Of a stretch of 64,000 nt of DNA, positions 1-36,138 are shown piece by piece. Positions within the stretch are counted from its first letter, which is position 1; every line of letters starts with the position of its first letter. Under the pieces are notes generated by a model that saw only the letters and a program-made list of their open reading frames with translations, ran no database searches and had not been told where the DNA came from. Source of the stretch: Microthyrium microscopicum (taxonomy: Eukaryota); assembly GCA_010405405.1 (NCBI GenBank), contig MU004233.1, forward strand, positions 1,962,539 to 2,026,538, given 5' to 3'. A program made the translations under genes and the position numbers.

Positions 1-237
1 TTATAAAGGTTGCTTAATTAGCAAGTTGTCTTATTTATATTTAGTTAGAGCTCTATTATAATATTAAAGAGTAAGATTAAAAGAACGTAACTATAGTTAA
101 GTTACTATGCTTCTATTTATACGTTTAGAGGATATAAAGTAATATTATTTCGTAGAGTTAACTATTCTTCCTTTATTATACTTTAAATAAGCTTCTTGTT
201 TTCTAATTAGTCTTTATTAAGTTTTTTCTTCCTTACC

Positions 238-271
238 TAATTAATTAATTAATTAATTAATTAATTAATTA
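238..271. repeat. (TAAT)n microsatellite inside the Gypsy 3' region; longer counterpart at ~35416-35466
   Basis: Directly visible. It sits at the equivalent position in both copies with different repeat numbers. Confidence 0.9.
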
Positions 272-3200
272 GGTAAGTTGTTTATTATAATAGCTATAGT
301 CTTACTAACTATATAGAGATAGCTACTCTAATTATTAACGCTTTTAATAATACTATTAGCTTTAATAGTTATATCCTTATTATTATTACTTCTCCTTATA
401 TATACGTTATTAACTATAATACTTCTTAATCTTATTTACTTACTACGTACGAGATAGCTATATATAAGGTTTACTAGAACGATATAAATAAGAGCTTTTA
501 TCTTTTTAATTAAGTTCTACTTTATTATTAGAATAATATTATTTATAACCCTTATCTTTATTTACTAACTACTTTCTAATATAAGAAGGTATATATAGTT
601 ATTAACTATTATAATCTATAAAACTATACTTTATTTAAGGTATTTTATATTAATTAGACTATACGTACTTTCTTAGTCTTTCTTAATTTATACTAACGTA
701 TTTATAAAGTAAGGCCCTTTATATTATAGTTAACTATTCTTCTAACTTCTTTAATAAGTGTCTTAACTTATTAAATGCCTCTTTTAAGGGGTTTACTAAT
801 AATTTATAGCTTAATGTTTATAGTATTATAATTTATTAGAGCTTCCTTAATATAATTTAGTTAACTAGTAGTTAAGCTAGTTATTTTAAAGCCTTAGATA
901 TTTATTATATGAATATTCTATAATTCTTTACTAAAAATAAGTAGAATAAAATTTATAAAAAGTAGTATTATACTTATTATATTAGCTATTCTAATTTAAA
1001 GAATTAGCTATAATATATAAGTTACGTTTAGCTTCTAAGATTTTATAATAATATATATTTAAACTATGTCTATAATAATAATATTAACTTAGATAAGAAG
1101 TATTTTTATAATAATAAGAAGAAGATCGCTAAGGAGGATAAGAATTCTTTACTATTAACTATCTATTTTAGTCTTTCTATTTCCTAAGGTATTACTTAAG
1201 TTTATCTTTCTTAGTAGTAGAGGTTTATTAAGTATATCTTATTTTTTTAGTTTTCTTATATTTTTATAATTTTCTAGTTTTATTTAGTAAGAAAGAGAGT
1301 CTTAGTATAAATAAAAGAAAAGTATTTTTATATATAGGTTATAGATAGTATTTTTAATTATATCTCTATAAAGTTAATTATTATAATAGAAGAGCTAGTT
1401 TTTAATTTTAGTTATACTTAAAGAATAGACTAGTTTAGTACTAATTTTTTATAATTATCTTATATATATTTTATTTTCTTTATCTATTTTATATAGGCTT
1501 TTAACTATTTAATAAAGTTAATTAGTTCTTTTATTATATTTAAATAACTTATCTATTTAATAATATAGACTATATAAAGTTTACTCTTTATTATCTTCTT
1601 ATATTTTTTAGTTATAATTTTTTCTATTAGTTATTCCTTTTATTTCTCTTTGTCTAAGTTCTTAACTAAGATTAGTAGTAAATAAAAATTATTAGCGTTT
1701 TAACTTAGAAATAGGTTATTTATTACTAGTCTAAGTAGGTTAATATAGAATTTCTTAATTTTTTATAGCATATTTAGTATAATTATATATAAGCTTACTA
1801 CTTTTATAACTTAGAACTTAGAGTAATAATAATTAAACTTCTTTTTTACTTATTTAGTCTTAGTATTTTTTAAGTCTAGCTAGACCTAATTACTAACTTT
1901 ATACTTAGGCGTTTAGATTTTTATTTAGTTAGCTTATTCTTATATTTTTTTTTAGGTAAAGGTTATAGTATTTTAAGCCTATTTTATAGCTTTTAAAATT
2001 ATATAAGTAGTTTTTTTCTTTTTCTTTTTTAAAGTATCTTTTTATTTAGATAAGAGAGCTTACTTAAGGAAGTTTAAGAAGGTAGAGTTTTTAAAGCTAT
2101 AGGATAAAAAGAAGAGTAAAAGTTTTATTATAAATAAGTATTATAAGTTAAGTATAAGTTAAAGTATTAGTATTAGTAAGAATTAGTTTAATTATATATA
2201 ATTTATATATATTTATACTTTAGCTTTAATATCTAAGTTTTATTATTCTATAAAGCTATTTATTTAAGGATAAAATATAATTAATAGCTATAGCTTTATT
2301 TATAGTAACGTATAGAACTTTATTTAGAAGTCTCTTATAAATACTAAATTATAATTATAGATAATTACGTTAGGAATACTATAAAGGAAATAGACGTATT
2401 ATAAGAAAATAGCTATAATATCTTTAGCTTCTCTTTAAGTAAGAAGGATTAGGATTACTTTTTTACTTAGCTAATTAGTAATAACTATTAAGATTATATA
2501 TTTATTTAATAGAGGAAGGTTTATTATAAAATTTATAAATAGTTCTTACTATTATTAGCTTAGAATAGGTAAAGGCTTTAAGAAGCCTCTTTTCTATTTA
2601 TAACTAATCTTTAATTAGCTATATATACTATAATTTCTTATAAAACGTTTTATATTAGCTATAATTTTAAGTTAAAAAAAGTATAGCTATAGAGCTTAAT
2701 AAGTACTTTTATAGCTAGGATAGCCTTAGGTTAAGGATATATAAGCTACTTATAGTATTATTATTTATAGAAGTTCTAAATTTAAGATTTATAGTTATCC
2801 TTTTTAGTAAAAGTAATCCTTACTATTAATTAAGTAGTTAGGAATAGAGATCTTAATATCTATAATTAATAGAGGAAACTTTTATCTACTAGCTTTAATT
2901 ATTTAATAGGCTACTTAATAAGTATTATTAGCTTATACTACCTTATTTTATTAGGTTACTAATAGTTTAGAAACGTTTAGTATTAGTAGTAGTAAATTAG
3001 AAATTAAAGCTTTATTAGTTAGTAGAGTCTTTACTAATTTATCTTTAATTACTATAGAAAGGATAGTAATATAAATAAGTAAAGCTTATAGTAGTTTAAG
3101 TAATTAATCTCTTTAGATATAAAGTAATTAGAAAGTTTTAGCCTAGATTCTTTTATTAGCTATATTTTAAGATATATCTTATTTATAATAAGAAAGACTA

Positions 3201-6200
3201 TCTATTATACTATTCTATAAACCTAGTTAGTACTTAATTATTATATTATACTTTATAAGTTTAATAGACTATTAGACGTACTTTTTTATAAGCTTTTATA
3301 GTTTTATAAAATATTTTAAGTTCTTATAATTAGATATTATTTTAAATTTCTCTATTACTTATAACTTTAAGTTCTATTCTTTTAGAGTAAGTATAATTAT
3401 AAGTATCTTTTTATTATAAATTAGGTAGTTACTTTAAGTAAAATTATACTTTTTAGAGAAATAGACTACTAGTTAAAACTTACCTATTTTATTCTTTTAT
3501 ACTAGTATAGCTCTTAAAGAATAACTAAAAAAGTTAGTATAGATAAAAGTCTTTCTATTATAGTTAAATAAGGCTAGTATTTAGTTAGTAGTAAAGAGCT
3601 ATTTTAGTTCTTTAAATATAGCTTTCTTTAAGTCTTTAAATAAGAAGAGAATATCCTTCTAAGTAAGTTAAATAAGAGATTTTATAATTATTTAAAAGTT
3701 TAGTATAAACTTATAATAGAAGTTAGTAAAGCTAAAGAAAGCTTAAACTCTATAAACGTTCTTAAGAGCTTTTTATTCTTAGATTACTTTAACTTTAGCT
3801 AAGTCTATTAAGATTCTTTATTTAGCCTTAATAATATAGCTTAAATATATTATCTAAGTAGTTATAAATTTATACTTCTAGATATTAAGATAGAGTCTTA
3901 CTTTTTATAGCTACTTAAGGACTTTATAAACGTAGGCCTTATATTACTTTCTAGTACCTAAGCTAAAGATTAAGATATTATTTAAGTATATAGAAACGTA
4001 ATTATCTAAGATATCTTAAAGGGTAGAGTTAATAAATCTTTAAAAGGTACTTAGAGTATTTAATAATCTAAATAGTATTATTATTTATTTAAATAAGCTA
4101 TATTATATCTAAAAAACTATCTTTTACTTATTACCTTTATATATCTAAATCTTATAGAATACTTAAGATATATCTAGCTTAGTAAACTATTATGCTTTTC
4201 TTAAAGCGTTTAGTATTTTATAGATAAGTAGTAAGAAGTAATAGTTCTTTATAGTTAACTTATTTAATATATAGTAGTTATAATAAAACTAAATTAATCT
4301 ATTTACTTTATAAATAAAGAGAACTAGTACTTTAGTAAGTAAGTTATTTATTTAAATAAACCTACTTTCTAGTAGATTATTAAGGATTCTTTTAAGGGCT
4401 AGTAATTTATCCTAATTTATAAAGTATAATATCTATTAAGGTAACTAAGGTTCTTTTCTATTAGCGTTTAGGATTAAGTTAATTTTATAGTCTATAGAAA
4501 AGCCTTAAATAAGTAGCTATTTATTAGCTAGCTCTTTTTAAAAAAGGTTAAGGTAATCTAAATACTATTTAGAAAGCTTTTTATAAGAGTTAATATACTT
4601 CTTTAAAGTAAGGACTTTTTATAAGTTATAAAGACTTATAGTAAAGACTTATATAATTAGTATTAAGCCTTTTTAAGACTATTTTACCTATTTTCTAACT
4701 TATTAAGTAAGCATTCTAAATACTATAGCTCTAATTACTATATAGTTATACTTCTTTTAAGAAGTCTTTAAACTTATAATTATATAACTTATTTCGTTAA
4801 AGACTAGCTTCTTAGGTTTTATATAAAGAATAATATCTTATTTCTTTATCTAAGGTAGGCTAAAGATTATATTATAGCTTAAAGTCTTTTTTATTATAAA
4901 GGCTTAAATAGTTTCTTTATAGCCTTTAATATTAATCTTTATAATTACTATTTTATAAATTTCTTTAGCTTTATTATTTATTTCTTTAATAAGAATTACT
5001 TAAGGTAGCAATATATATTTAAGTTTATATCTTTAAGTAAAGTAAAGACTTATAAAAGAATAGGTTAAGTAGCTACTATTAATAAAGCTTATATATAAAG
5101 AAAGTTAATTTACTATTAAAGATATTAAAAAGGGCTCTATAACTATATTTTAAGTAAAGAACTTTTAACGCTATTTTAAAATAATATTTTTATAATTTTT
5201 TAGTTTAGTATTACGTCTTTAATCTAAGTTTACTAGTTTTCTAATTCTATATTAGTAACGTTATATAAATTATTATAAGAGTTATTATTTTTTAGCTAAG
5301 TAGTAGTAGTCTTTACTAGCTAGCTACTCTAAGGAACGTTTAAAGTATTAATAGTACTAGCCTAGAATCTACTAGTATTATCTTATAGACGTTTACTTTT
5401 AGTAGTACTTTCTCTACCTTATTCTTATTTATAGCTAGCTTAACTATAGAAAAGATTCTAACTTCTAGATAATACTTAGGGCGTCTATTTATAATTCTAA
5501 ATCTTATAATTAGCTAAGCTATAGTAAAAATAAAGGTTATTTTACTTATAGTAGTTATGCTAGGCTTAGCTAGCTTTAACCTAGATATCTTTTATTACGT
5601 CTAGGTTTTAATTCCTAGATAATTAACTCTACTAAGTATTTATTTTAGTACTTAGTTCTCTTAGGCTATAATAACTTATATAAGCTTAAACTATTTAATC
5701 CTAAGTTTTTAAAGCTTCTTAAGTAAAGATATCTAAATTATTAGGCTAGAGGTAAGTAATTAAAGCTATTCTAAGACTAGAATCTATAGTATTTTCTAAG
5801 AATTATATCTAAATAGAGGTAACCTAAAATTATACTCTAGTATAGATAAGATATTACTAAAACTTAGCTTAAAAGATTCTTTATTCTTTGCCTCTTTATT
5901 AGATTCTTTAAAGGTTTATTAAAGCTCTTATTTCTTTATATAGGTTATAAAAGAGAAGGTCTATTTATTCTATAAATTTACTAAAACTTATAATGCTATA
6001 GCTAGTAGAATTCTAAATTTAAGAAAGGACTTATTAAGTAGTATCTTTTATAAGCTAGCTAAATATATAGTAGATTTAAGTATAGTTATTTATATAAATT
6101 TATTTATTAATATATAATTTTGCTTTAATTATTTAGCAAAAACTAGAATAAAGGGTTAAGTCCTTATATAAATATTATTTTAGGTTTAGGAGAGTTAGTT

Positions 6201-6973
6201 AGAAATTTTGTAATAGTAGTTAAAGTAGCTTATATTAAATAGCTAAAAGATTTATTAAAGAAGATAGAAGAAGAGTTACTAATCTAGCTATTATAATTAA
6301 AGTCTAAGGAGGATTAGCTTATAAAATTAGAAGAGAATAGTAGCTATAGTTAGAAGTTTCTCTAATAAAGAGTATAGTTAGTATTAAAGAAAGAGTTATA
6401 CTAAGTATTATAGATTTTTTCTAGAGTTATTTTTATTCTTATTATTACTATTAAGTTAGCATCTTATAGGCAATATTATTTACTTATTATATAAGGATCT
6501 TACTACTAGTATAAATATTAGTAAGCTATTTATTCTAGCTATTAACTTAGGCTTAGAGTTTAACGTAGACTACTATAATCTATTATATATTTTTATTTAA
6601 TTATATATAAATTTTATTAGTTAACCTATTTAGTTATTATAAAGCTTATTTATAACTAGTAGTAGTTATATATAATTATAAAATAGATAAATTAAGTATA
6701 TTATTAAGTAGTAAAATACTATTTATTACTTATTATAAGCTATTATTAGTTACCTTCTAGGATATATCTAAGTAGTTCTATAGCTTTATCTATTATTAGT
6801 TAATATATATAAAGTATACTTTTACGTTCTTATAAATAAAGCCCTTAAAGAACGTTTCTCTATCCTATCTAGTAATTATTAGGTAAGAAAGATTTTAGTT
6901 TACTATTCTAATTATTTATTAATAAATAGAGAAAGAGTAGGTAAAAAGAAGAGTTAGTTTTAAAGTTACTTAA

Positions 6974-7135
6974 TATTATAGATTAGATAATAAAGAGATA
7001 AGTTATATTATAAGCCTACTAAATAGGAAGGTAACTTAGAGAGAAAAAAGAGTTAAGAGACTCTTTAATCAAGGTATTTATATATAATAGGGGTAGCCCA
7101 AACGGGTATAGCTTTAGGGGGTTTAACCCCTAACA
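6974..7135 (-). repeat. 5' LTR (162 bp) of Gypsy copy 1
   Basis: Reverse complement matches 28551-28712 and 35977-36138, differing mainly by transitions. Confidence 0.93.
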
Positions 7136-7507
7136 TCTTTTTTAAATTTAAATTCTTATATTAGCTATAACTCTATAACTAGTCTAGCTAGATAAAATCT
7201 AAGACTAGATTTAGATTCCTTAACACTAGAGCTATAAAATAGTATATAAAACGTTCTATATTTCTTATATTTAGCTATATTTAAATATCTTAGCGACTCC
7301 TTAGCGACTTCCTTAAGTTACTTAAGTATTAACTTAAATAACTTAAGTATTTTATATTAAGGATTTAGACTCAATTTAGGTAAAAAATACCATGATTAGT
7401 ACTTAATTTAGACTAGTGCCTGCTAACTAAAAGACTAACTTGAGTCAGATTAGTCGACTCTGAGTCGAGTTAAACTTGAGCAAAGAGTGAGTCGGATGCC
7501 AACACTG
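7136..7507. mobile_element. Probable terminus of a hAT-like DNA transposon into which Gypsy copy 1 inserted
   Basis: RIP composition to ~7440, repeated subterminal GACTC/GAGTC motifs, and an end reading CAGTGTTGGCATCCGACTC on minus (CAGTG.. termini are typical of hAT elements). The partner TIR is not in the window. Confidence 0.45.
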
Positions 7508-8167
7508 CGCGTCATCGCGTGGTAAACACATTCCGGACTCCACAGACTCCACATTCTCGCGGCTCTCAACATCGTCAAAAAAAGGGGCGGTCGGCCATCC
7601 CGGCATTTTGGAATTACACATTCTTTTGGGACAAGATCTGCTTGGGAAATACGAGAAGTCGACGACTGATCTCGTCATACTCCAACTACACATCATGGCT
7701 TGAAGTTTCCAGGACTGACATGATGTTCATCTACTCCGTATCCTTCGACATCATGGTATGATATCAAGCTATATCATCAAACTGTTCGGTTTGCGTTCAA
7801 TGCCAACTTGAAGAAGCGTTTGAAAAACACCCTGCATTGTGGCTGCAAGTCTGCATCGAAGGCAGGTCCTAGTATTTATAAACCTCATCTTACCTGGCTA
7901 GCAACTGTCAACATCCTGTTGACAGGTGGATACCCAACTTCCAAGAAGGTACTGTTGACGCGACTAGTAGCGACCATGGAGAATTTTGACACACTACAGA
8001 GCATGGACAGTGAACTAGTTCGAGACGACATACCGTGCTTCAATGTCGAAGACACAATATTTAGCCAGTCGCGCCTAGCACATCAACTACTACATCTCTT
8101 TCATTCTCTATACTTTTCGCTCGTTCAAGTCGCTCTTTAGCAGTCATTCGTTTCGAAAGCTTCAATC

Positions 8168-11100
8168 ATGAAGACCCAACACTCGTTTATTTTGCAGTTA
8201 CTGCTTGTTTTGACTTTGTTCTCTGTACTGATATCGGCTGCTGCTGCGAAGCCAAAAACCTCCTCAAGCTCATCTAAGAAGTTGACCTCGTCGTCTACGA
8301 AGACATCGTCGTCGTCTAAAAAGACTTCGTCCTCCACTAAGACATCATCGTCTATTAAAACATCGTCCTCTATCAAACCTTCGTCGTCCTCTGTGAAGAC
8401 TTCGTCCAAAACGTCACTAGTCACGTCAACGCTACAGACCTCAGCTCTGTCCAAACCTGAGTCGTCTGTGTCAAGTTCGCCATCGGCTTCAATCTCTGGA
8501 TCAGCTACCATATCTGAGTCAACTTCATCCAGCTCTGCTCCAGCGATACTAGTTTCAGCAGTATCATCTTCATGCGGGCTAGCGGGCTATGATGGTATGC
8601 ATTCCATTGCCTTGCTAATACCCTTCTATGCTAACATTTGTTTCTACAGCCCAGAATCCTGCTGCATTCTACTATAATGGAAACGTAGCTGATACCACTA
8701 GCTGTGCGGCTATCTGTTCTTCACAGTCAACTTGCAAGTGCGTAAACCGCTGATATACTAATGAAGCCAACTTCTAATCATTACAACAGATCATTCGCTT
8801 TTGGCGGTAGTGGCACAGAATGTCTTACTTACGAAGCCATTGTCTCTGGAAACTTCGACGCTAACTCAGCAAGTCCTTATTACTTCTATGATATAACATG
8901 CTCATTTGCAACCTCGAGCTCTTTAGCAAGTTCGTCTAGCACAGTTTCATCATTTTCATCAGCATCTATCTCGTCATCAGCTACACTTTCGAGCTCAGCT
9001 ACAATTTCGACATTTGCCACAACCTCGACGACATCGAACTCGACGGTCTCAAGCTCAGCGGTAGCAAACTCAACAGTCTTAAGCTCGACATCAGCCTCAT
9101 CCTCATCCACATCTAGCGCAGCCACAGCAACCATCGCCGCAACAATTCTAGTCATATCCACTGATACGACCAGTGCATACGATGCTTACTCAGGCCTCAA
9201 TGCTCATGGAATACCATACGAGCTACTCATTGTGCCTTCAGGAGGCGCAGCTCTGCCTACTCTTAACTCATCCACTTCGAGCGCTAATTATGGAGGTATC
9301 ATAACACTGAGCGAACCAGCTGGTCTGACAACTGATCAATGGAACACAATGTACTCATATCAGGAAGCCTTTGGAGTTCGAATGGTTCGACTAACAGCGG
9401 ATCCATCAGGAGGTGGTGATGGTTCTAGTTTTGGTTCGTTACCTACTCTGGTCCACTTTTTCGTTCTACGGTTATACTAATGTTTGCTCATCATGTAGGA
9501 ACCACAGGTGCAAACGGAGATTCTGGCTGCTGTGGTGATAATGTTGAGCAGCTTGTATCTTTCACCAACACTACTGCGTTTCCAACTGCAGGTCTTGTCG
9601 AGTACGTAATCCAAATTGATACGTGGCGATCAATTGACTAACAATGCTCAGAAACCAAGGACGCAGTACTTTGAATATTTGGCATACTCCAGCCATCATT
9701 ACAGACGCCTCAAGCACTATCGAAATTGCCAAATTTGCGCCCAGCTCTGATGGCACCTTTGCTTCTGATACTGTGGCCGCTGTTATTAACACCAATGGCA
9801 AACGGCAGCAAATGGTCTGGTTTATAGAATTTGCTACTGACTGGTCGCTCACCTCCAACTTTATTATGCATGCTCACATCCAGTGGGTAACCCGTGGTCT
9901 ATGTAAGTCATACGAAAAGAAAAACGTACTGTACCACAATGAGTTCTAACATCTTGACCACAGTCATCGGTCAACGACGCATTCTTTTCAACAGTCAAAT
10001 CGATGATGTTCATCTCGAAACAGAGTTATACTATCCCTCGGATACACCCACGTGGTTCCGACTTCGAACCTCCGATTTGGATGCCCACGTGGCCTGGATG
10101 GCAGACCTTAACTCTCGTCTACCAGCTGGCTCTCTGTATCGCATTGAGCTAGGTCACAATGGCAATGGAAATGTCGAATACGCCACCCTCAACGACACTT
10201 CAGGAACCATTTGTACCCCGGAGACCTGGGTTCAGTACACTGGCACAAACTACGTCCCAACAGATCTCGAATTTCAGAAAACACTTGGAGCAGGCATCAG
10301 CATTTGGCCAACTACCCCTACATATCTTGAATGGAGTATGGAATGCTTGGCCCTCGATGAGCTTTTGAGCTGGTTCCTAGTCGCCGAAAACAGAGATGCA
10401 TTCAGCCATCTGTCTCATACATTCACTCACGAGAACGAAGATAATGTGACGTACTCGGATGTCGTCAATGAGATTCAGTATAATCAAGCGTGGCTTAGCA
10501 AGGTTGGATTCACCAGTGCGGCTTATTACTCACCAAATGGTATCATCCCGCCTGCTATTACCGGTCTACACAACGGAGATGCTCTTCAAGCTTGGTCAGA
10601 TAATGGTATCATTCACGCTGTTGGTGATTCTAGCCGACCAGTGCTTTATAATCCGGTAAGCAGCGATCTCTTCAATCATAGTATACTATGCTAACTAGCC
10701 GTTTTCAGATTAACGAGTACTGGCCTCTCATCACCAATGTTTCTGCCAATGGATTTGATGGAATGACTGTCGTTCCACGCTGGAGTAAGTATACCATGAT
10801 TCCCTCCCAGAAGTCGGTCTAACCTTGCCTAGCATTCCCAATTTACTTTGACTGTGATAATGTCGCTTGCAACTTGGTAGAGTGGGATGATACTGCCGGT
10901 GGAGATGGTAGCTTAACCGATCTACAATCCTACCTCCAAGAGGGATGGACCAAGGAATTATTGGGCCTCAAACAAGATCCGTAAGCTGCTTTGAAACATC
11001 AACAGCAGGCTGTGGACTAACCATGATTTAGATACATGTTTCATCAGGCCAATCTTCGACACGGAGACACTCAGGAGGTGACTATCGGACCCGTCTCTGG

Positions 11101-11610
11101 GTATCTGTCACTGTTGCAGATCTTTGTCGAGACTGTGCTTCAAGAGTTGACCAGATTGTAAGTTTTCACCTTATCTCCATCCTCATATGATCTCTCTTCA
11201 TTTACCACTCATACCCAAGCACAATTGCTAACTTACTACGATAGAACTACCTGGCCAGTCATCACCAAGAAGCACGATGACACTGCCGTCGCTTTCCTCA
11301 ACAGAATGGCACAAGAGTAAGTTACTACCCATCTCACCTCCTTTCATCGTCCTTTTGTACTAACAATATTCCCAGTCAATGCCTACCTGCAATGACCTAT
11401 TCCATCGCCAACAACACAATTACCAGCGTCAACGTTGTTGCAAAGCAAGGCTGGTGCAATGTTGCCATCCCAGTCACTTTCCCAGTGGCAGCAACAGCTG
11501 TCGGCGCAACAGCTACGGCCGAGCAGCTTGGATCTGATCCTCTGACTCTATGGACTGAAGTGGGGTCCAGTACTGTATCATTCTCATTGAGCGAGCCGAT
11601 AGCATTGTAG
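8168..11610 (+). CDS. Secreted Agd3-like carbohydrate esterase (CE18, galactosaminogalactan deacetylase family) with Ser/Thr-rich stalks and a PAN/apple-like Cys module; about 10 introns
   Basis: Signal peptide MKTQHSFILQLLLVLTLFSVLISAAAA. Motifs QIDDVHL, ELGHNGNG, SHTFTHE and PPAITGLHNGDALQAW match the Agd3 family. GT-AG introns such as 8595-8649, 8738-8789 and 9434-9498 join the ORF fragments. Stop at 11608-11610. Confidence 0.85.
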
Positions 11611-12013
11611 GATCTGTAGCATTGAGCATTGCATGGAAGGAAGCGCTGGTATTGGACGGCATGAGCTCTTTTGTCCTTTGGCAAATGAAGGTCTTGCGAG
11701 TTATTTAAACTGTGGAACTCTATCACAGTCTGTAAGTAAACATAATGGATATTGTTACATACTAGTAGTTGTATAAATCATAGTAACTACGATCAATCTT
11801 GTATGAAATAACGATAGCCATAACTGATCTAGAGCAATCGGGTTATTTGTTGGACCAAAAAGTGTTTTGCCCTTCTACTCCATATCAAAAGTCAGTATTA
11901 GGGCGACGTCCACAGCAAAGCCATCTCCTACTTCTAATCTATCTCTACCGCACTCTCATATCCCTTCATATCGTCATACATGGGCAAAAGACGGAAGAGA
12001 AAAAACGAAAGAT

Positions 12014-12053
12014 TGGGTCAAGTAATGTTTCATTGAAGAAACTGCATGTGTGG
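12014..12053. repeat. 40-bp sequence repeated in inverted orientation at 14515-14554 (37/40 identical)
   Basis: TGGGTCAAGTAATGTTTCATTGAAGAAACTGCATGTGTGG versus reverse complement TGGGTCAAGTAATGCTTCATTGAAGAAGCCGCATGTGTGG; all three differences are transitions. Confidence 0.88.
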
Positions 12054-12299: not shown

Positions 12300-13369
12300 T
12301 TATGCTTGTTCAGTTTCGTCCTCAACAGGTGGCAAGGCTGGTGTTTTATTCCAAACTGATCCCGAAATGCTTCCTTGAGCAATGGTGGATGCATTGCTCA
12401 TTCTTGTGCTTCCGCCTGTCTTCTGTGTTATTTTCAGCGTCTTTGCAACCAGCGGGCGTAGAGTTCCCAGACAACCCCCGATGACGAATAAAGCCGGCTC
12501 AATGGCAGAAACAAGTGCCCCAACGGTGCCTGTCTGAGGAGCCTCCACATCGTAAATGTCGCTTAGTCGTACTAATCGAACGATCGTAGCGATCAAACCA
12601 CCCACGCCGAGCAACAGAATGCCCGAAACGGTCAATTTGGTCCGAACATTCATTGATGGGGTGATGATCACATGCCGCAATGGTAATGCAACTACGATCA
12701 GGTCGAACGCCATGCTTGTTGTGACCTGCAAGTATTGTAGAATAGTGTCGGCCTTTTCAGAGTGGCATTTTTGAGGCTGGGTAAACAAAACAATGGCATA
12801 ATGTTGAGGCACGCCACAAAAAAAGAGGAAGAAGAAAAAGTGTACGGTTCCAAGTACGGTCGTAACCAGGACTGCCGAGTAAAGAATGAGGCGCTCCCAA
12901 GTAGCAGTTAGGAGGCGGAGGAATTGGAACCCGAGGGACAGCTTGAGGAAAATGTATTCCAGGATGAAAAATAGAATCATGATATGCATCAACTAGTCGT
13001 ATAAGCCAAAATCATTGAAAGAGACTGTAATGTACCTTCATATAATTTAAAGCCTCCGGGAAGCTAAGCCTCGAAGTGATGTGTGGAGCTAGTTCATGCA
13101 TTATCAAAAGGAAGATACAGCCGGCTGTGAGTAGTAGCTATTAAAATATATGAGTATGGCGTGATAGGGAGAGGGAATCTAGGAGATAGATATCATACCA
13201 CTGATAGTCCCATGAACCAATCATCCAGACCGAAAGATCGAACAACAAAGGCTCTGACGTATACTCTGAGAAAAAACAGTGGCCATATAAGGACCAGTGT
13301 GATGACTGCTGTTATAGAGATTGCCCACGCCAGTACATTGTCGGATGAGTATGTGATTCCAGGGGCCAT
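12300..13369 (-). CDS. PTH11-like 7-TM integral membrane receptor (no CFEM domain), 2 introns
   Basis: Exon 1 reads MAPGITYSSD...FLRVYVRAFVVRSFGLDDWF (PTH11 signature). The last exon has DLIVVALP, IATIVRL and IEPALFVIGGCLGTLRPL. Confidence 0.85.
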
Positions 13370-14368
13370 GACGGAAGATAGTTCTATGTTGCTTTCACTA
13401 TGGAGCCAATCAGTACATGATATTTACTTTCTAGAATGTCTTACAGACCTCGCTTTGTCTTATGCTATCTCGAGAACAAGTGGTTGTCCGTTACTAACAA
13501 CAGTTATAGAGCAAGTTAGTTGAGGGAAGCTGCGAAAATTGGACAAAACCACGAATAAATACACGGTCAAGCGTTCGGCAATGCTAACGTAGGGTACCAG
13601 TGATTGAAAGTGAGTCCTTGAGGAAAACAAAGTTTCGTGTTAGCTCAGGGGTACTGCATTACCATATATCATCTTCGATTCTTCTCAGTGATGCCGTAGC
13701 TCTGCATGCTCTGTATGCTGAAGAAGTCTCTTGGAGATTGATCTGTCTGAAAAGTCAACATCAGTTACGTTGGAAGCTTAAATCAAAGACCAGTTACATA
13801 TATTGGGTGGTCATATTTACTTGATGGTAACAAATTCGTCAATTGTCTGGTACCTAGTTGGCCTAGCTTGAATGGCTAAAATATCTATAACACCTAGAGC
13901 TCGTCCAAAAGACCTGGGCCAGTTGTTTTGGCAGCTCTATCCTTTTTACACTGTTTCAAAATCTTCATTCAATATTCAGCAGTGAGCCGGCTCAAAGTTG
14001 ATAGACACGAACCACGAAGTCGAGGAGTCAAGAATCCTGCATTCATCGGAATTGCACTATGCAACCTAACACGGATTACGCTACTCTACGTGATAGGAAA
14101 CCAAAGGTGGCATTGCAAAAAAGCTTTACATTATCAAAAGTAACAGCCAATGCTTGGAAGATTGGGACATGAATTTCTTTATTAGATGCCTAATAGTATG
14201 AGAAATGACTTAACTGTACTGCATGATTTGTGCTGATAGAACTGTATGAGATCAATCGTCAACAGGGGATGGAGAGATAGTAAACAAGAAAAGTAAGGAG
14301 AACTGCATTTACCTCAGTCGTTATGCGATATATACGAATTTTTGGGAATTTGTGCTCATTCAATATCC

Positions 14369-14491
14369 GCCTTGCTAGCTCAATCGGTAGAGCGTGAGAG
14401 TAAGCTAACTCGTTCCGTTCCAACACAACAAATCTAACCAGCTCATCAGCTCTTAATCTCAAGGTTGTGGGTTCGACCCCCACGTAGGGCT
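14369..14491 (+). tRNA. tRNA-Lys-CTT: tRNA-Lys(CTT) interrupted by a 50-nt GT-AG intron (14400-14449) between positions 31 and 32
   Basis: Joining 14369-14399 to 14450-14491 gives a full 73-nt cloverleaf: GCCTTGC/GTAGGGC acceptor stem, GCTC/GAGC D stem, TGAGA-CT CTT AA-TCTCA anticodon arm, GTGGG-TTCGACC-CCCAC T arm, T73 discriminator. Confidence 0.93.
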
Positions 14492-15511
14492 GTCAACTTT
14501 AGACTATGTCTAAACCACACATGCGGCTTCTTCAATGAAGCATTACTTGACCCATAGTTCTTTTTTTTGCCTTTTCTTTCTTTGCCAACTCCCAACTGCC
14601 AGGTCCATATGGTATGAATGATTGTCATGAGCGCATCATTTTGGTAAAGATGACAAAAAGGAAGAATAGATAGACAGTAATTCATTATTTTTGGTGTAGA
14701 TATAGCTATTGTTTATGATTTGTGGGCAGAAGTCTTTGAGTAAGTACTCCCAAGATATATTAATTTAGGTACACGTTCAATTGTTGGTATCTGTTACCAG
14801 AACTTTGCTATTGTAGATTAGAGAAATGTTTTCATGATTGTATGATGGGTATGACTACTATGCTGCAGTTACTTGCACGGCGAATCTCATGCTACTCGAA
14901 GTTCAAAACCACCGCATATCACAGCCTTGAAATATTATATCACACAATATAAGGACACAAGATAATTAGGTTGAATTCTGAAAGTAAAGTCACTAGTCCT
15001 GTTTTCTGGCTTGTCCAACGATTTGCTACCGTTAGTGATAGTGTCTATAGTATAATAGTATCACTCTTTGACGTCAAGAGGCTGTTTGTCCCATTCGCAT
15101 TCTTTGAACAGATAGATAATGAATGCCCTTAATAAACATAAAGCACACCACAAGAACTAGAAAGTGATGATATGTATCTTAGTATGCGGAAGCATAATAC
15201 TTATTTTCCTAGTCTGTGACTGATTTGTTTTTGAGATATCAAATCAGGGGAGAGCACCAATATAAGCATACAGTTTGTGAAGTGGCAGTTCGAAGCATTT
15301 ATTAATGGAGACCCCAAGGTAACTACCTACCCTAGAGTAACCTATCCTACCTCTGACACCGGTTTTTGAATTACATCCGCCATCATCGTGGCTCAATCCA
15401 ACTCAGTGCAGTTCGAGTCATCTATGTACTCGACAATCCAACAAAGCTTTCCAGTCAAGGTCTACAATAGACCTCCGCAGCAACATGTTTCGTTCTTGAA
15501 ATTGAGTACTA

Positions 15512-17143
15512 TCAGTACACGTCCTCCTCAATGTCCTCATCCGTATGAAAGCCCTCATTAGTATCAATATCCTCATCTGTATCAATGTCCTCATCCGTAT
15601 CAATGTCCTCATCCGTAGGCCCTCGCTCTGGATCCCGTGCTGCCATCGCACCGCGCAAGTCCTCGTGCGCACGCTTGTTGGCGGATTTCAGCAAGCTGTC
15701 AAAGTCATCTCTTGATAGCGTTACATCCGACGTGATCTCAAACTGGCCAGTTCGTGCAAAGTGAGCTTTGACTCGATCGACCACATCCCAGGGATATTCT
15801 AGCTCGAGAATTTCGCTCGGTTCTAAGTGGCTCTCAATCAACCACCGTTCTGCCAATTCTTGGGTGGGCAAGCCATTGAGGCTTATGTTGATATGTCGCA
15901 AATTTGGTTGATTGAGCCGAGACAACGTTTTGATCCACCTGAATCATGTTAGTATGATGGCCTCGAGAGAAGGTGTCAGAGGTTGGCATATTGCATATGA
16001 CTATCCAATCCCCACTTACCATTCCGAGTCAAAGCTGTCTGCCAGTTCGAATTGTGGGCAAAAGTTCACAGTCAACGTATGGGTAAGCGGACCCACGATT
16101 GGCATCGATGGTGGATTTGCGGTAAGCAAGTCATTGATGAAGTCGTTGTGAAGTTGTATTTCCAGCAGCTTGGAAGATACTGTTACGGCCGGATGCATCA
16201 TATGCGCTGTGGGTGGATATAAATCGTTACCAATTGTTCCTTCTATCCACAAACTGTCGATCAAATCGAAATTGTCTCTTTCAGTAACTCCTGCTTCATC
16301 AACTCTGAAAGTTTCGACGGTAGACTTGAGTAACCCTGCAGTAGCTACAACAGTATCCCAATCATATAGAACACCAGTTCCAAAGTGCACGTATTTCAGC
16401 TGCATAGGGATAGTAAGCAGAGGAAAGAGGAATGTGGGGTGAATCGAAGCGACACGAAGACCGTCTTTTGTCCAGTGAAGATGTTGTAGCTTCGGCATGG
16501 AACCGAAGACGGCATTAAGCAGTTCTGAATGACCGGGAGTATCCAATGCCATGTAGGTATGTACTTCCAAGTACTTAACGCGACCTAATCGGCTTTTGAG
16601 ATCAGTGGATATGCGAGCGAGATCATCTTTGAGGTCATCTCGATTTCTTTCCGATATCTCCAAATGTACCGATTGGCAGAACTCCCAGGCATCATCAGGA
16701 ATGCTTGGGCGATTCGAGGGGTATGAATTTATGTCGGCAATGAGACTCAGGGCGAGATGATCCAGGGCAATTGGTGGAGCGTACGTGAGGTTGACATGAT
16801 AGAACAGCAACGGGCGAGCGATTTGCCAGATACGGTGACACACTTGGGTCAACAGTCGAACAGTTTCCAGTCTTGGTGGTTGAAATCCGCAGGGAAATTG
16901 TTCGCAGCAAGCGTATCTCACTACCTTGTCGAGTATCTCATTCGGTAATTTGAGCAGTGGAAAGGGAGTCCGGTCGGAATCGTCGTTTGAGCTTGTGGTA
17001 GCTAATTCGTTCGCTGGATACTCTCGCCAATGTAGTTGCTGTACGCCTTGAGCGTATTGACTGGAATTGAGACGAGGACCGGCTGTAAAGCCTGGGTATA
17101 GCGCGGTTCTAGAGACAGTCATATTAGCTCCACTATCTGCCAT
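15512..17143 (-). CDS. F-box domain protein with acidic C-terminal repeat; one intron (15939-16019)
   Basis: F-box motif PLLKLPNEILDKVVRY...VCHRIWQIARPLLF. A GTAAGT...CTAAC...CAG intron joins the 375-aa and 137-aa ORFs in frame (EW|WIKTLSRLNQ). Confidence 0.8.
15529..15616 (-). repeat. Imperfect 18-bp coding tandem repeat (TDEDID), about 5 units
   Basis: Repeated ATCAATGTCCTCATCCGT units are visible. Confidence 0.85.
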
Positions 17144-17546
17144 TCTCTTATGCTTGAGATTGCCTAAGCCCGTGAAGTTGATCTTGAAGCCAGCTGAAGG
17201 TAAGCCGAGTGTTGATATGGAGACTCTTAGTGAAAGTTGATGTGATGTGTGTGGGTGTAATCTGAAGTTGAGCTCTACCCCTTAGGCATATGGGTACATG
17301 GCTCCTGCCTTGGAATGTCGGGTCTGGTCAGAGCTGGGTCGTGCCTGCCTGAAGAATGAGCGTGAATGATAAATTGGGAAGGTAAGACCGGCAGCTTGCG
17401 CTTGCTAAGGTACATGTAGGTAGTCTCCTCTATGTTCTACAGTAGACTGATTTCTTGAGTATGTTGACAGCTTGAGGACATTGAAAGCACTTTTGGAACT
17501 CATTTCAATATTCACCCTCCGTTAGTATTTATATTCCATGCCACCA

Positions 17547-25993: not shown

Positions 25994-28550
25994 TGCTGAT
26001 TGTTTGGTTAAAAACTTGTTGGGCTAAGATTTGGTCAGCACACGCAAGCCACAGACAATCGGGTTTGTTGGCGGGCGTAAAGATCGGCGAAAAGCACTAA
26101 CCGTAGTGCAATGCAATCAATGGGAAAATGGACTTACCGTTGCCCAGTTAATTGCTCTCTGTCTTTGGTGGTATCACGACCACAAAAGTGAGGTTTCCAC
26201 AATCGATATAAATGGTGATTATCAGACTCAGACACCCAGGCTGACAAGATGAATCCTCCAGGCACGATTGGTGTATGAAATAGTTAGGCCAAGGATATAT
26301 TCGCAAGCCGGTGAACAACAGGAACCCTGTGGAGGTAGTGAAAACGTTGATCCCAAGAAGACCTCTAGGAATAAACTATAAACGTGAAGACTTGGAAAGC
26401 TTCATAAGATGTGGTATATGTGCAATAAGAGATGGGTGAGTAGTAAACAAGAAGCGTTGTAGATCGGACCTAGAATGGGAAGGGGACAATGAGGCTATCT
26501 ATAGGACATAAAGCAAGAGCATAGGGAAGCTTGGAGACAGGGCGCGTTCTAAACGGTAGTCGCGACATAGACCTTGAGCGGAGCAAGTAGGTACTGCGAC
26601 CGCAGCATGTTGCATGATTTCTTTTGGATGGTTGGATTCTCTGGACACTACTAGTTCGGCCCTATGGATATGATCAGGGGTGCAAATGAAGCTAAGGAAG
26701 ATGTCGAAATCAGAATTAGATTCAATTATAAAAAACACGGTAATAGTAGTAAGACTGGCGTGGGAGTGGTTGGCTTGACTGACGGGGTGTTAGCCAACCG
26801 CCAATTTTTGGCTTTGGCGGTACATGTAGCGCTCCGCCTTCTCGGGGGCCGCGACCATGAAAAACCTCAGGGTTCTGCTGAGAAGGGAGCGGTGTCCTGA
26901 ATTCACGCCTGTCGCGTTGACATGCTCGCTCTAACTCGACACCACAGACATCACCACCTCTGGCTCCAATAAAGAGCCATATCGTCCCGTTCTTGCAGAA
27001 TCCCCGCATGGTAGGTCCATGCAATGCCGGGTGTTTGGGCAGTGGACTGACGAGCATGGCTGCTTCTTGGACGGATTAATCACAGAACAATAACCAGTCT
27101 CTCTTTTGAGCCCTGCAGGCCTTGCCTGTCTTGGAACATGCAGCAAAATCTGTGGTGGCATCCGCATCCGATGTGGCTGGTTTACGGATTCCGCACTCTT
27201 CATACCAGGTAGTTTCTCTCCATGACAATGACCAATTCAGAACAGCTGTTCCAAGGGATCTATCAGCAACTTCCCTTCGAGCTCAGAAGCTTCTTGTACG
27301 AAAGTGGTAGCACAGAATAAAGCTTGGTTCAATTGAGGGAGAAGCCTGCTAGCATTTTCATGGAGCCGATCCACTCTGGAGGGTCGACAGCTCGCATCCA
27401 CAATAATAAGACCCTGATCCGTCGCTTAATTAGGAATAGTATTACACATAAATTGATAGTTCTTATGTAGCGCTAATAGATTCTATTAGCACTATATAAG
27501 AGATTTTAGCTCTAATTCTTAATAATGCGTTACTAGAATAGTATTACTATAGAGTTTATATAAACGTTATATCTTAGCCTTATTAGTAATAAAATCTTTT
27601 AAGAATTAATCTATTTTAAGTATATTTTTAAAGCTATAAGTAGAACTAAGAATAGCTAAGACTCTTAAGAGAGCTATAGGTTATAGAATACGCCCTAATA
27701 AAGAGATATAATCCTATAGTAGTAATTTAGCTATAGAAACTATTAGATCTAATATCTTTATATTCTATAACTTATATCTTTATATTCTAAAGCTTAATAT
27801 CTTCTTTAAAGCTAAAATGTCTTAATAATATAATTTTATACCTAGAATCTTAATTAAGAGCATGCTTAGCTTATTTAAAGTAACCTTAATAGCGACCTTA
27901 ACGTTTTTTCTACCTTTCTAAGCCCCTTAGGGCCCTACTATATAAAATACGCCTATTTAATACTCTAGTTACTAGTAGGCTATAGTGCCTATAGGGCTAA
28001 TAGCTTTACTACGCTAGTATTTAAGCTAGGGCTAGGATAATCTAACTAAATTAGTTAGGATCTATATCTATAATAAGGAATTATATAGTAGTAGTACTAG
28101 TAATGCCCTAAGTAGTTAGAAGAATGTATTTTAGAATAGTATTATTTAAGATTTTAAAGCAACGTCTAGTAGTAGAGCACCCTCTAATTAGACTATAAAG
28201 ACTACTCTAAAAGATAATATTTTATACTAGTATAAAAAAAAAGATAAATATTGTTTAAAGATAGTTCTTAGATCTAACCTATGTTAAGAAGCTCTAAATG
28301 CGTAGATTATTATTAAAAACTAGTATAATTTAAGGGTACTAAGTAGAACTAAAGCTTAGGAACTAATTAACGCTTATAGGTAAGAATAGGTTTAATACTA
28401 TAATATTATTATAATAATATTTAGTAAGCGTTCTAGCCCTATAATTAAATTAGATAAGACTTTACTATTATTAGTAGATATTATTACTACTCTATATATT
28501 TCTAAATTACTATTATAAGAATTCCTTAATTTAAATAGTACTAGTTTAGG

Positions 28551-28712
28551 TATTGGGGGTTGAACCCCCTGAAGCTATGCCCGTTCGGGCTACCCCTATT
28601 ATATATAAATACCTTAATTAAAGAGTCTCTTAACTCTTCTTTCTCTCTAAGTTATCTTCCTATTTAGTAGGCTTATAATATAACTTGTCTCTTTGTTATC
28701 TAACCTATAACA
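28551..28712 (+). repeat. 5' LTR of Gypsy copy 2
   Basis: TATTGGGGG (RIP of TGTTGGGGG)...TATAACA with an internal TATA-like tract. Confidence 0.93.
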
Positions 28713-31700
28713 TTAGGTAACTTTAAAACTAACCCCTCTTTTTTACCTACTCCCTCTTTATTCGTTAATAAATAGCTAGAATAGTAGACTAAGATCCCTC
28801 TCGCCTAATAACTACTAGATAAGATAGAGAAATATTCTCTAAGAGTTTTACTTGCAAGAACATAGAAGCATACTTTACGTATATTAACTAATAATAGATA
28901 AAGCTATAGAACTACTTAGACGTATTCTAAGAGGCAACTAATAATAGCTTATAATAAGTAATAAATAGTATTTTACTACTTAACAATACGCTTAATTTAT
29001 CTATCTTATAATTACGTATAACTACTACTAGTTATAGATAAGTCCTACAATAACTAAATAGGTTAATTAGCAAAATTTATATATAATTAAATAAGAATAC
29101 GTAATAGATTATAGTAGTCTATACTAAATTCTAAGCCTAAGTTAATAGCTAGAATAAATAGCTTACTAATATCCGTACTAGTAGTAAGATTCTTATATAA
29201 TAAGTAAATAATACTACTTATAAGACTTTAACTTAGTAGTAGTAATAGGAATAAGAATAACTCTAGAGGGAATCTATAATACCTAGTATAACTCTTTTTT
29301 TAATACTAGCTATACTCTTTGCTAGAGAAACCTCTAACTATAGCTACTACCCTCCTCTAATTCTATAAGCTAATCTTCCTTAGACTCTAATCGCAATAGC
29401 TAGATTAGTAGCTCCTTCTCTACCTTCTCTAATAAATCCTCTAGCTACCTAATATAAGCTACTTTAATCACTACTATAAAACCTCTAACTAGCTCTCCTA
29501 AACCTAGAATAATATTTATATAAAGACCTAACCCTTTACCCTAGTTTTTACTAAATAATTAAAGTAAAATTATATATTAATAAATAGATTTATACAGATA
29601 ACTACGCCTAAATCTACTATATATTTAGCTAGCTTATAGAAAATGCTACCTAATAAGTCCTTCCCTAGATTTAGAATCCTACTAGCTATAATATTATAAG
29701 TTTTAATAAGTTTATAGAATAAATAGACTTTCTCTTTTATAACTTATACAAAGAAATAAGAGCTTTAGCAAACCTCTAAGGGATCTAACAAAGAGGCAAA
29801 GAATAAAGAATCTTTTAGGCTAAGTTTTAGTAGTATCTTATCTATACTAAAGCATAATTTTAGGTTACCCTTATCTAAATGTAGTTCTTAGAAAACGCTA
29901 TAGATTTTAGTCTTAAGATAGCTCTAATTACTTACCCCTAGCCTAATAACTTAGATACCTTTACCTAAGAAGCTTTAGAGACTTAGGATTAAATAGTTTA
30001 AGCCCGTATAAGCTATTATAGCCTAAGAAGCCTAAGTACTAAAATAAGTACTTAGTAGAATTAACTATCTAGGAATTAGGACCTAGACGTAATAAAAGGC
30101 ATCTAGGTTAGAGCTAGCTAAGCCTAGCGTAACTACTATAAGCAAAATAACCTTTATTTTTACTATAGCTTAGCTAATTATAGAATTTAGGATTATAAAT
30201 AGGCGTCCTAAGCGTCGTTTAGAAGTTAGAATTCCTCTTATAGCTAGGCTAGCTATAGATAAGGATAAGGCAAAGGAGGCACTACTAAAGATAAACGCCT
30301 ATAAGATAATACTAGTAGATTCTAAGCTAGTGCTACTAATACTCTAAACGTCCCCTAGAGTAGCTAACTAGTAAAGGCTACTACTACTTAGCTAAGAAAT
30401 AATAACTCTTATAACGATTTATATAACGTTACTAACGTAAAATTAGAAAACTAGTAAGCTTAGATTAAAGACGTAATACTAAGCTAGAAAATTATAAAAA
30501 TATTATTTTAAGATAGTATTAGAAGTTCTTTACTTAGGATATAGTTATAAAGCCCTTTTTAATACCTTTAATAGTAAATTAACTTTCTTTATATATAGGC
30601 TTTATTAATAGTAGCTACTTAACCTATTTCCTTATAAGTCTCTACTTTGCCTAAAGACGTAAACTTAAACGTATACTACTACCTTAGGTAATTCCTATTA
30701 AAGGAATAAACGACGAGGCTAAAGAAATCTACAAAATAGTAATTATAAAGATTAACATTAAAGGCTACAAAGAAACTATTTAAGCCTTTATAGTAAAAGA
30801 GACCCTAAGCTATAATATAATCCTTAGCCTACCTTAGATAAAGAAATAAGATGTTATTCTCTATATAAAACTTAAGAAGCTAGTTTTTAACAAAATAAGT
30901 TATATAGTTATAAGTCTAAAGACTCCTTAGAAGAAGTATAACTACATAGCGATTAAGGCTATAATATTTAAGATACTTACTTAATAAGCTAGAAAGTAGG
31001 TAAGATAGTCTTAAGAAGGCTTAATACTAATTATATAAGTCTTTACTATAAGTCTTTATAACTTACAAAAAGCCCTTACTCTAAAGAAGTATATTAACCC
31101 TTATAGAAAGCTTCCTAAATAGTGTTTAGATTACTTTAACCTCTTTTAAAGAGAGCTAGCTAATAAATAGCCACCTATCTAAGGCCCTTTCGTAGACTAT
31201 AAGATTAACCTAATCCTAAACGCTAATAGAAAGGAACCTTAGTTACCTTAGCAAGTATTATACCCTATAAATTAGAACGAATTACTAGCCCTTAGAAGAA
31301 TCCTTAATAATCTACTAGAAAGCGAGTTTATTTAAGTAAGTAACTTACCTGCTAGAGTACTAGTTCTCTTTATTTATAAAATAGATAGATTAATTTAGTT
31401 TTATTATAACTACTACGCGTTAAATAAGTTAACTATAAAGGACTATTACTCCTTACTACTTATTTATAAGATACTAAATGCCTTAAGAAAGGTATAATAA
31501 TTTACTAAGCTAGACGTATCTTAAGCATTCTATAAGATTTAGATATATAAAAGTAATAAGTAGAAGATAACCTTTTAGATATAATATAGCTTATTTAAAT
31601 AGATAGTAACACTATTTAGGTTATTAAATACTCTAAGCACTTTTTAGAGATTTATTAACTCTACCCTTTAAGATATCTTAGATAACTATATTTCTATATA

Positions 31701-34700: not shown

Positions 34701-35976
34701 GCTAACATAATAAGTATAATGCTACTCCTTACGAGTCTTATTTTACTTATTTTTAGTAGAGAATTATAGGATACCTACATAATAAATACCTAAGGCTTTA
34801 AGATAACTAGCCTAGCTATTAGTTAACTAAATCGTACTAAGAAAGCTCTAATAAATTATAATACTATAAACGTTAGGCTACAAATTATTAGTAAACCCCT
34901 TAGAGAAGGCATTTAATAAGTTAAAACGCTCATTAAAGGAGTTAGAAAAATAATTAGTTATAGTATAAAGGACCTTACTTTATAAATACGTTAGCATAAA
35001 TTAAGAAAGGCTAAAGAAGTACGTACAGTCTAGTTAATATAAAGTACCTTAAATAAAGTATAGTTTTATAGATTATAGTAGTTAATAACTATATATACCT
35101 TCTTATATTAGAGAGTAGTTAGTAGATAGAGATAAGGGTTATAAATAATATTATTCTAGTAACGAAGTAAGACTTAGTTAAGAAGGCAAAGGCTTTTATT
35201 TACGTTATTCTAGTAAGCCTTATGCATAGCTACCTCGTGCATAGTAGGTAGATAAGGTTAAGGAGCATTATAGTTAATAATATATATATAAGGAGAGGTA
35301 ATAGCAATAAGAATACGATCGTTAAAGCTAATAGTATTATTAAAAGCGTTAATAATTAGGGTAGCTATCTCTATATAGTTAGTAAGGCTATAGCTACTAT
35401 GATAAACGACTTACCTAATTAATTAATTAATTAATTAATTAATTAATTAATTAGTTAATTAATTAGGCAAGGAAGAAGAAACTTAATAAGGATTAATTAA
35501 AAGAGAAGAAGCTTATTTAAAGTATAATAAAAGAAGAATAGTTAACTCTATAGAACGATATTACTTTATACCTTTTAAATGCATAAGTAGAAGCATAGTG
35601 ACTTAACTATAGTTACGTTCTTCTAATCTTATTCCTTAATATCGTAATAGAGCTTTAACTAAGTATAAATAAGATAACTTGCTAATTAAGCAACCTTTAT
35701 AGGATTATAACTAAAAAGAACTAACATTATACGCTAAGAAAGGGGCCTTATATCTAGAATTTAGTCTAAAATAGGCAAAACACTAGTACGAAACTAATAG
35801 TTAACGACCTAAGCTTTATATTTTATACCTAAAAGTGAATGCATAGATCTATATGTTATAAATAGAAGCTCCATCATAAATCGTAAGAATAGTAAGCGTT
35901 AAATATAGCTAGATAAGATTAGGATCTCATAATCAACTTAGTATTTTAGCTAAAATTTTTTAGATGAAGGAAGTAA

Positions 35977-36138
35977 TATTAGGGGTTAAACTCCCTAAAG
36001 CTATGCTTATTTAGGCTACCCCTATTATATATAAACACTTTAATCGAAGAGTTTCTTAACTCTTCTTTCTCTCTAAGTTACCTTCCTATTTAGTAGGCTT
36101 ACAATATAACTTGTCTCTTCGTTATCTAACCCATAACA
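35977..36138 (+). repeat. 3' LTR of Gypsy copy 2
   Basis: Same length as the 5' LTR, preceded by a purine tract, ends CCCATAACA. Confidence 0.93.

Follow-up and report, generated by a model that had tools for sequence, protein, structure and literature searches.

A Probable Spliceosomal Intron between Positions 31 and 32 of a Fungal Nuclear tRNA-Lys(CUU) Gene

A tRNA-Lys(CTT) gene on the forward strand of a 64-kb window of fungal DNA (the whole stretch that was analyzed, 64,000 nucleotides) is split between tRNA positions 31 and 32 by 50 nt that carry the sequence signals of a spliceosomal intron. We judge it reasonably probable that this is a real U2-type spliceosomal intron in an intact, probably expressed, free-standing nuclear tRNA-Lys(CUU) gene. 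The more far-reaching account, in which an expressed tRNA-Lys(CUU) with intact Pol III-type boxes is matured only via U2-type splicing of a 3'-extended precursor and its product is used in translation, is put forward more tentatively, as a serious possibility that falls slightly short of probable. [quoted passage not shown]

The gene was the sole one found in the 64-kb window by ARAGORN with introns allowed (tRNA-Lys(ctt), 14369-14491, intron i(32,50)); the default search, without introns, returned no tRNA gene in the window. Lowering the ARAGORN threshold added 10 calls, with introns of 7-2782 nt or of odd types (Pyl, SeC), which were judged to be noise. The Rfam tRNA model (RF00005) matched the sub-window 14300-14560 with 45.5 bits (gathering threshold 29, E-value 7e-09), in an alignment that spans model positions 1-71 and holds 57 letters in place of the 7-nt anticodon loop. 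Over the whole window Rfam gave no match at either the gathering or the E-value threshold, and the tRNA-Lys gene was missed. It should be noted that the split gene was found only by the intron-tolerant ARAGORN search or by Rfam on the 261-nt sub-window.

ARAGORN, Rfam and the cloverleaf fold agree on the two exons. The 5' exon (14369-14399, + strand) comprises tRNA positions 1-31, that is, the 5' strand of the acceptor stem, the D arm and the 5' strand of the anticodon stem. The 3' exon (14450-14491, + strand) comprises positions 32-73, with the anticodon loop, the 3' strand of the anticodon stem, the variable loop, the T arm and the 3' strand of the acceptor stem; the CTT anticodon lies at 14452-14454 and the discriminator base is T. 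The insert between them (14400-14449, + strand) reads as a spliceosomal-type (GT-AG) intron. Its removal in silico leaves 73 nt whose minimum-energy fold is a cloverleaf (-25.9 kcal/mol) with standard pairs at 21 of 21 stem positions, two of them G-U, and the anticodon loop CT-CTT-AA. Fold, Rfam and ARAGORN thus show what is expected of a functional tRNA-Lys(CUU): a complete cloverleaf, the anticodon CTT and the conserved D- and T-loop residues. Both internal Pol III-type boxes are also present, with a stretch at 14376-14387 in the 5' exon, which we take to be A-box-like, and GGTTCGACCCC at 14470-14480 in the T arm of the 3' exon, presumably a B-box. The fold of the whole precursor (-30.3 kcal/mol, z -1.17) was equaled by 25 of 200 shuffled sequences and indicates no special structure. 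The coordinates and letters of gene and insert given in the earlier note, and its claim that exact removal of the insert restores an intact tRNA-Lys cloverleaf, are borne out by these analyses.

The insert has a full set of spliceosomal signals. The putative 5' splice site GTAAGC (14400-14405, + strand) fits the extended fungal consensus GTRNGY, the likely branch site CTAAC (14434-14438, + strand) fits CTRAY and has its A (14437) 12 nt upstream of the terminal base, and the putative 3' splice site CAG (14447-14449, + strand) fits YAG. For the U3 snoRNA introns of fungi, an average distance of 15 nt from the branch site to the 3' splice site is given in the available sections of one study (PMC5832005). 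A second CTAAC (14405-14409, + strand) is too near the 5' splice site to be a likely branch site. The insert contains no T run of 4 or more. For comparison, we collected as window introns all GT..AG candidates whose removal fuses two open frames (minimum length 35 codons). This gave 16 distinct introns of 42-92 nt with a median of 51.5 nt (a stricter first pass gave 6), and the 50 nt of the insert lie within this range. GTAAGC starts 3 of the 16 (10656, 10981, and 50789), and CTAAC lies near the 3' end of 11, the others having CTAAT, CTGAC or CTGAT. The insert is typical of the introns of the window in size and signals, as had been claimed for its GTAAGC start, its CTAAC, its CAG end and its length.

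To control for chance, we examined every 50-nt stretch on both strands of the window (n = 127,902), with a loose test (GTRNGY at the start; CTRAY followed by 4-22 nt and a closing YAG) and a strict one (GTAAGY and CTAAC). GT..AG boundaries were found in 505 stretches, of which 9 passed the loose test and 3 the strict test, with true introns and the insert itself counted in. The intron likeness is not a product of chance, because the boundaries of the insert are set independently by the tRNA structure, and a random insertion would hardly bring all three signals at good spacing. A BLAST search of 13900-15100 against the window found no further copy of the insert in the 64 kb, and the sequence has no target-site duplication or direct repeat at the insert boundaries; both observations argue against a transposon footprint.

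A form of the gene joined across the insert was found in public sequencing data. Four of the runs retrieved (X1-X4) belong to the probable source sample (organism A), one (X5) carries the organism label B, and two (X6 and X7) are dominated by a third organism; contigs of X4-X7 were aligned to positions 13300-15700. X5 contains 39% of the sampled words, and its labeling as "RNA?" is an automatic guess, so that it may be DNA; none of the listed runs is recorded as RNA. In X4, one contig of 10,499 nt covers all of 13300-15700 including the insert, with no other letters and no gaps; X4 is probably the source of the window sequence, and this agreement is therefore no independent confirmation. X5, in turn, has two contigs on this region, with depths of 13.5 and 3.5. 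The deeper one (record 2, 249 nt, from a run only guessed to be RNA) consists of 14379-14399 joined to 14450-14677, again with no other letters and no gaps, and is entirely explained by these two pieces. Its joint, 14399|14450, omits exactly 50 nt with the ends GT..AG and has no alternative placement ("both" = 0), and GT..AG is oriented along the + strand, which is the tRNA strand. The predicted junction is thus present in one X5 contig, with 21 letters on its 5' side, below the 31 letters per side required for a bridge. Past the tRNA the contig continues for 186 nt into the flank of the same locus (14492-14677). The second X5 contig agrees with the window in all 111 nt that align to this region.

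Several points bear on how this contig is to be read. With words of k = 31 and a 3' exon of 42 nt, a contig is no proof that the junction and the flank come from a single molecule. X4 has no second record on the tRNA and its contig is unbroken through it, which suggests that no other locus in that genome shares 31-mers with the 3' exon, and the junction words are therefore unlikely to have been borrowed from a paralog. The contig starts 10 nt inside the 5' end of the tRNA, and such a start would be expected near an RNA end. The patchiness of X5 (no cover of 13300-14378 and 14678-15589; depths of 13.5 and 3.5) was considered as a sign of RNA and dropped, as holes are uninformative and the depth of a contig says little. 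Should X5 be DNA, or RNA from a strain that lacks the insert (label B as opposed to A), the contig would represent an allele without the intron, and splicing would not be shown; with DNA, too, the boundaries of presence and absence would fall exactly at GT|..|AG, as for intron gain or loss. In X6 and X7, many contigs of 31-36 nt (depth 93-642) match 14456-14494 with 0-1 differences and represent the Lys tRNA of the other organism, showing that the 3' half is widely conserved Lys tRNA sequence. A few pieces of low depth (2.3-2.5) in these two runs are identical to the window, stop short of the intron and are uninformative on orthologs; the fungus of the window appears to be a minor component of the X6 and X7 sample.

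The X5 joint does not by itself establish splicing, because the RNA label of the run is a guess and the strain may be one without the insert. This leaves room for an alternative that we consider unlikely: The gene would be a disabled or dispensable Lys(CTT) copy with a 50-bp insertion (possibly a very recent intron-like gain) that is not productively removed, and X5 would show, as DNA or as transcript, an allele or strain in which the insertion never occurred. The guessed nature of X5, the difference between its organism label and that of the source runs and the 21 letters 5' of the joint are all compatible with such an allele, and a tRNA-Lys gene of this kind could be a dispensable copy. The available parts of one review (PMC4090602) likewise describe odd-position inserts as occurring mostly in one of many synonymous copies and as being taken for pseudogenes, and in our case the terminator-like T run is far from the gene. 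The earlier note had also called for a search for similar genes: A pattern for Lys(CTT) genes interrupted at position 31/32 by 30-70 nt found 0 loci in metagenome, genome and viral contig collections, which hold few fungal genomes; the lack of a related intron-bearing locus there would fit a dispensable copy. Against a disabled copy stand the flawless exons, with all their stem pairs intact, and the low frequency of the combined splice signals in the chance control. Against an intron-less strain stands the agreement of X5 with the window over all 249 nt of the joined contig, 186 nt of which are intergenic flank, and over the 111 nt of the second contig, which suggests the same or a near-identical strain. 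The insertion itself would even then have boundaries exactly at the splice sites.

The flanks of the gene bear on how it is transcribed. A TATATA at 14329-14334 (+ strand), 35-40 nt upstream of the tRNA 5' end, may be an upstream promoter element. A typical tRNA gene transcribed by Pol III has a T run close behind it, which stops the polymerase. Directly after tRNA-Lys there are only three Ts, no run of 4 or more follows within the first 69 nt, and the first long run is a T8 at 14561-14568, 70 nt downstream; a nearby Pol III terminator is thus absent from this locus. Beyond it there are two T4 runs (14572-14575 and 14639-14642) and a T5 (14688-14692), the last just past the end of the X5 contig. 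The downstream flank in this contig (14492-14677, + strand) is continuous with the joined tRNA, and the contig continues past the T8. Such a passage could come from minor Pol III read-through enriched in a long-RNA library, from Pol II transcription, or from transcripts merged in the assembly.

Behind the gene lies a 54-nt element, which was the only non-self match when 13900-15100 was compared with the window by BLAST: It occurs at 14515-14567 (+ strand) and, inverted, at 12000-12053 (- strand), with 87% identity. The distance from the tRNA to the first copy is 24 nt, the second copy lies about 250 nt past the stop of a gene with a Fung_rhodopsin domain, and each is followed by a T-rich stretch. 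The element has no Rfam match, and the X4 contig fits both sites. It could be a terminator, a 3'-end element or a small repeat. A SINE or other tRNA-derived repeat, which the recurrence of the element might suggest, was rejected, as no tRNA-like sequence lies upstream of the second copy.

Taken together, these features allow for a second alternative, which we rate as quite improbable: The spliceosome would indeed splice the insert, acting on a Pol II non-coding or read-through transcript that happens to contain the tRNA sequence, and little or no functional tRNA would be released. Such a transcript would explain why the joined contig runs 186 nt past the tRNA and through a T8 of the kind that stops Pol III, and the 54-nt element that recurs behind a protein-coding gene would fit it as well. 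The start of the contig inside the tRNA, with nothing aligned upstream, argues against it, as do the intact internal A and B boxes and the whole cloverleaf. Nor was a host gene recognized on the + strand: The two open reading frames just upstream (13131-13523 and 13898-14143, both + strand) matched no Pfam family. In addition, a k-mer contig may merge overlapping transcripts, so that the long trailer and the joined tRNA may come from different RNAs.

The tRNA-Lys gene is free-standing: The genes on either side of it, both on the - strand, are about 2.2 kb apart. They are the Fung_rhodopsin-domain gene (Pfam-matched exon 12300-12992, with its 5' end probably near 13300) and a neighbor at 15512-17281 that has an intron of its own (15939-16019). 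The surrounding block is gene-rich (41-50% GC) and is bordered by AT-rich blocks (19-29% GC). In the same window, an Agd3-type deacetylase gene (about 8740-11610, + strand; PF25115, E-value 2e-94 on 9891-10694) has at least 6 predicted introns of 50-61 nt, and a Delta24-sterol-reductase-like FAD-binding gene (PF01565; 17547-19130, - strand) consists of a single exon. The best match of comparable length to the protein of the latter has 55% identity and the best match from a named species, in the Dothideomycetes, about 52%; identity rises to 59-60% in two longer unnamed proteins, which align with about half of the query. That the best named relatives are only about 52% identical indicates that the lineage, which belongs to the filamentous ascomycetes (Pezizomycotina), is poorly covered by public data. 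The AT-rich blocks (1-8000, 28000-38000, and 42000-44000) contain repeated elements, for example the pairs at 273-322 and 35365-35414 (-), at 3202-3281 (-) and 32406-32485 (+), and at 28667-28716 and 36093-36142; they look like transposon islands degraded by RIP.

In the ARAGORN prediction the intron follows tRNA position 31 and not 37/38, and the X5 joint at 14399|14450 allows no other placement. BHB pairing was not found at these boundaries, where only 1 of the 4 pairs needed for the central helix can form and 0 of 4 in the outer intron helix; of the 29 partial, BHB-like geometries that a brute-force scan detected in the precursor, none has cut sites at 31 and 81. The fungal endonuclease works by a ruler mechanism. 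A cut of this kind would fall 6 nt further on and would give a loop with the anticodon AAG on a Lys body. This canonical 37/38 reading (loop GTAAGC+A, with AAG, a Leu anticodon, on a Lys body) is contradicted by the X5 joint, which is 14399|14450 and not 14405|14456. With an insert that is not at 37/38 and no BHB at its boundaries, the tRNA endonuclease is unlikely to be the agent. Any route to a working Lys tRNA needs the same two bonds cut, the joint alone names no enzyme, and in some lineages eukaryotic endonucleases cut BHB motifs at odd positions, as described in the available sections of PMC4090602; a non-canonical tRNA intron removed by Sen endonuclease and tRNA ligase, as in nucleomorphs or Cyanidioschyzon, is nevertheless the least probable of the alternatives and can be given very little credence, as it would have to do without a BHB, miss the ruler cut, and carry by coincidence a set of spliceosomal signals that is very unlikely to arise by chance.

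In reviews, tRNA introns are removed by an endonuclease and a ligase and not by the spliceosome (PMC12530127; PMC13149111). The putative intron of tRNA-Lys resembles these canonical Sen/TSEN introns in that it lies in the anticodon arm of a nuclear tRNA gene and that its removal restores the anticodon stem-loop; it differs in its position at 31/32, in its GT..AG boundaries with CTAAC and in having no BHB. A pairing between anticodon and intron is possible in the tRNA-Lys precursor, and unlike that of the Sen/TSEN introns it would direct the cut that yields AAG and not the X5 joint. Inserts at odd positions are rare in eukaryotic tRNA genes and, as far as the available text of PMC4090602 covers them, are mostly taken as pseudogenes or else depend on a BHB or are very short. 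The tRNA introns of nucleomorphs and of Cyanidioschyzon merolae (PMC4090602, same sections) share with the present case an insert off 37/38 that needs precise excision, but they are 3-24 nt long (Guillardia nucleomorph) or BHB-dependent, whereas here we find 50 nt, no BHB and spliceosomal signals.

The closer parallels are found among the spliceosomal introns of fungal non-coding RNA genes, which are known from U6 (a Pol III transcript), U1, U2 and U5 snRNA, from U3 snoRNA and from ascomycete rDNA, according to the accessible parts of two studies (PMC5855946; PMC5832005). Like the introns of Schizosaccharomyces pombe U6, Rhodotorula U1, U2 and U5, fungal U3 and ascomycete rDNA, the insert in tRNA-Lys is a short GT-AG intron with a branch site in an otherwise intact gene for a structured non-coding RNA, and with S. 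pombe U6 there is precedent for spliceosomal processing of a Pol III transcript (as set out in the same parts of PMC5855946 and PMC5832005). [quoted passage not shown] Reverse splicing is the suspected origin of the introns in U6 and other fungal snRNAs (PMC5855946, in the sections available).

The full-text literature searched, mostly without subscription papers, yielded no report of a spliceosomal intron in a tRNA, in line with the earlier note, whose author knew of no established case. The sections consulted of the Kuraishia genome paper (PMC3879985) and of a paper on intron circles (PMC11146597) contain nothing on spliceosomal tRNA introns.

A further comparison is with the introner-like elements of the Dothideomycetes. 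These are recent gains of short spliceosomal introns and are defined by many near-identical copies. The present insert is also short, and it occurs in a fungus whose best named protein matches are from the Dothideomycetes; unlike introner-like elements, it has no second copy within the 64-kb window.

Returning to the spliceosomal reading, we propose the following scenario. A nuclear tRNA-Lys(CUU) gene would have gained an ordinary 50-nt U2-type intron between positions 31 and 32, probably when an intron was reverse-spliced into an abundant RNA, which was then reverse-transcribed and brought into the gene by recombination, the route suggested for fungal snRNA genes. Transcription would start near the 5' end of the tRNA; the internal A and B boxes suggest Pol III, and the long trailer leaves Pol II open. 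In a precursor that still has its 3' trailer, U1 would pair with GUAAGC, and the branch A of CUAAC (14437) would attack the 5' splice site. Joining of the exons at 14399|14450 would restore the anticodon stem and the CU-CUU-AA loop, and RNase P, RNase Z and CCA addition could then complete the tRNA.

This would be a new host class, tRNA, for a known kind of intron. Reviews, in the portions available, treat the three types of nuclear intron as separate: Spliceosomal introns occur in mRNAs and in a few snRNA, snoRNA and rRNA genes, and tRNA introns are removed by a protein endonuclease that recognizes structure rather than GT-AG (PMC12530127; PMC13149111). Spliceosomal maturation of a tRNA would break this separation. 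If the reading is correct, the tRNA-Lys gene would be the first tRNA to stand beside U6, U3 and rRNA as a host of spliceosomal introns, and it would show that such introns can enter transcripts with Pol III-type promoters, even those that are the most compact and highly structured. Lys decoding might then also be tied to splicing, as the earlier note suggested. The gene would further offer a clean and recent-looking case for intron gain by reverse splicing, as well as a natural substrate for studying how splicing competes with tRNA folding, with RNase P, RNase Z and La, and with the Sen complex. Further cases would probably be hiding elsewhere: Split tRNA genes of this kind escape default tRNA finders as well as Rfam scans of whole contigs and would be missing from routine annotations, and the tRNA gene sets of fungi may therefore be undercounted.
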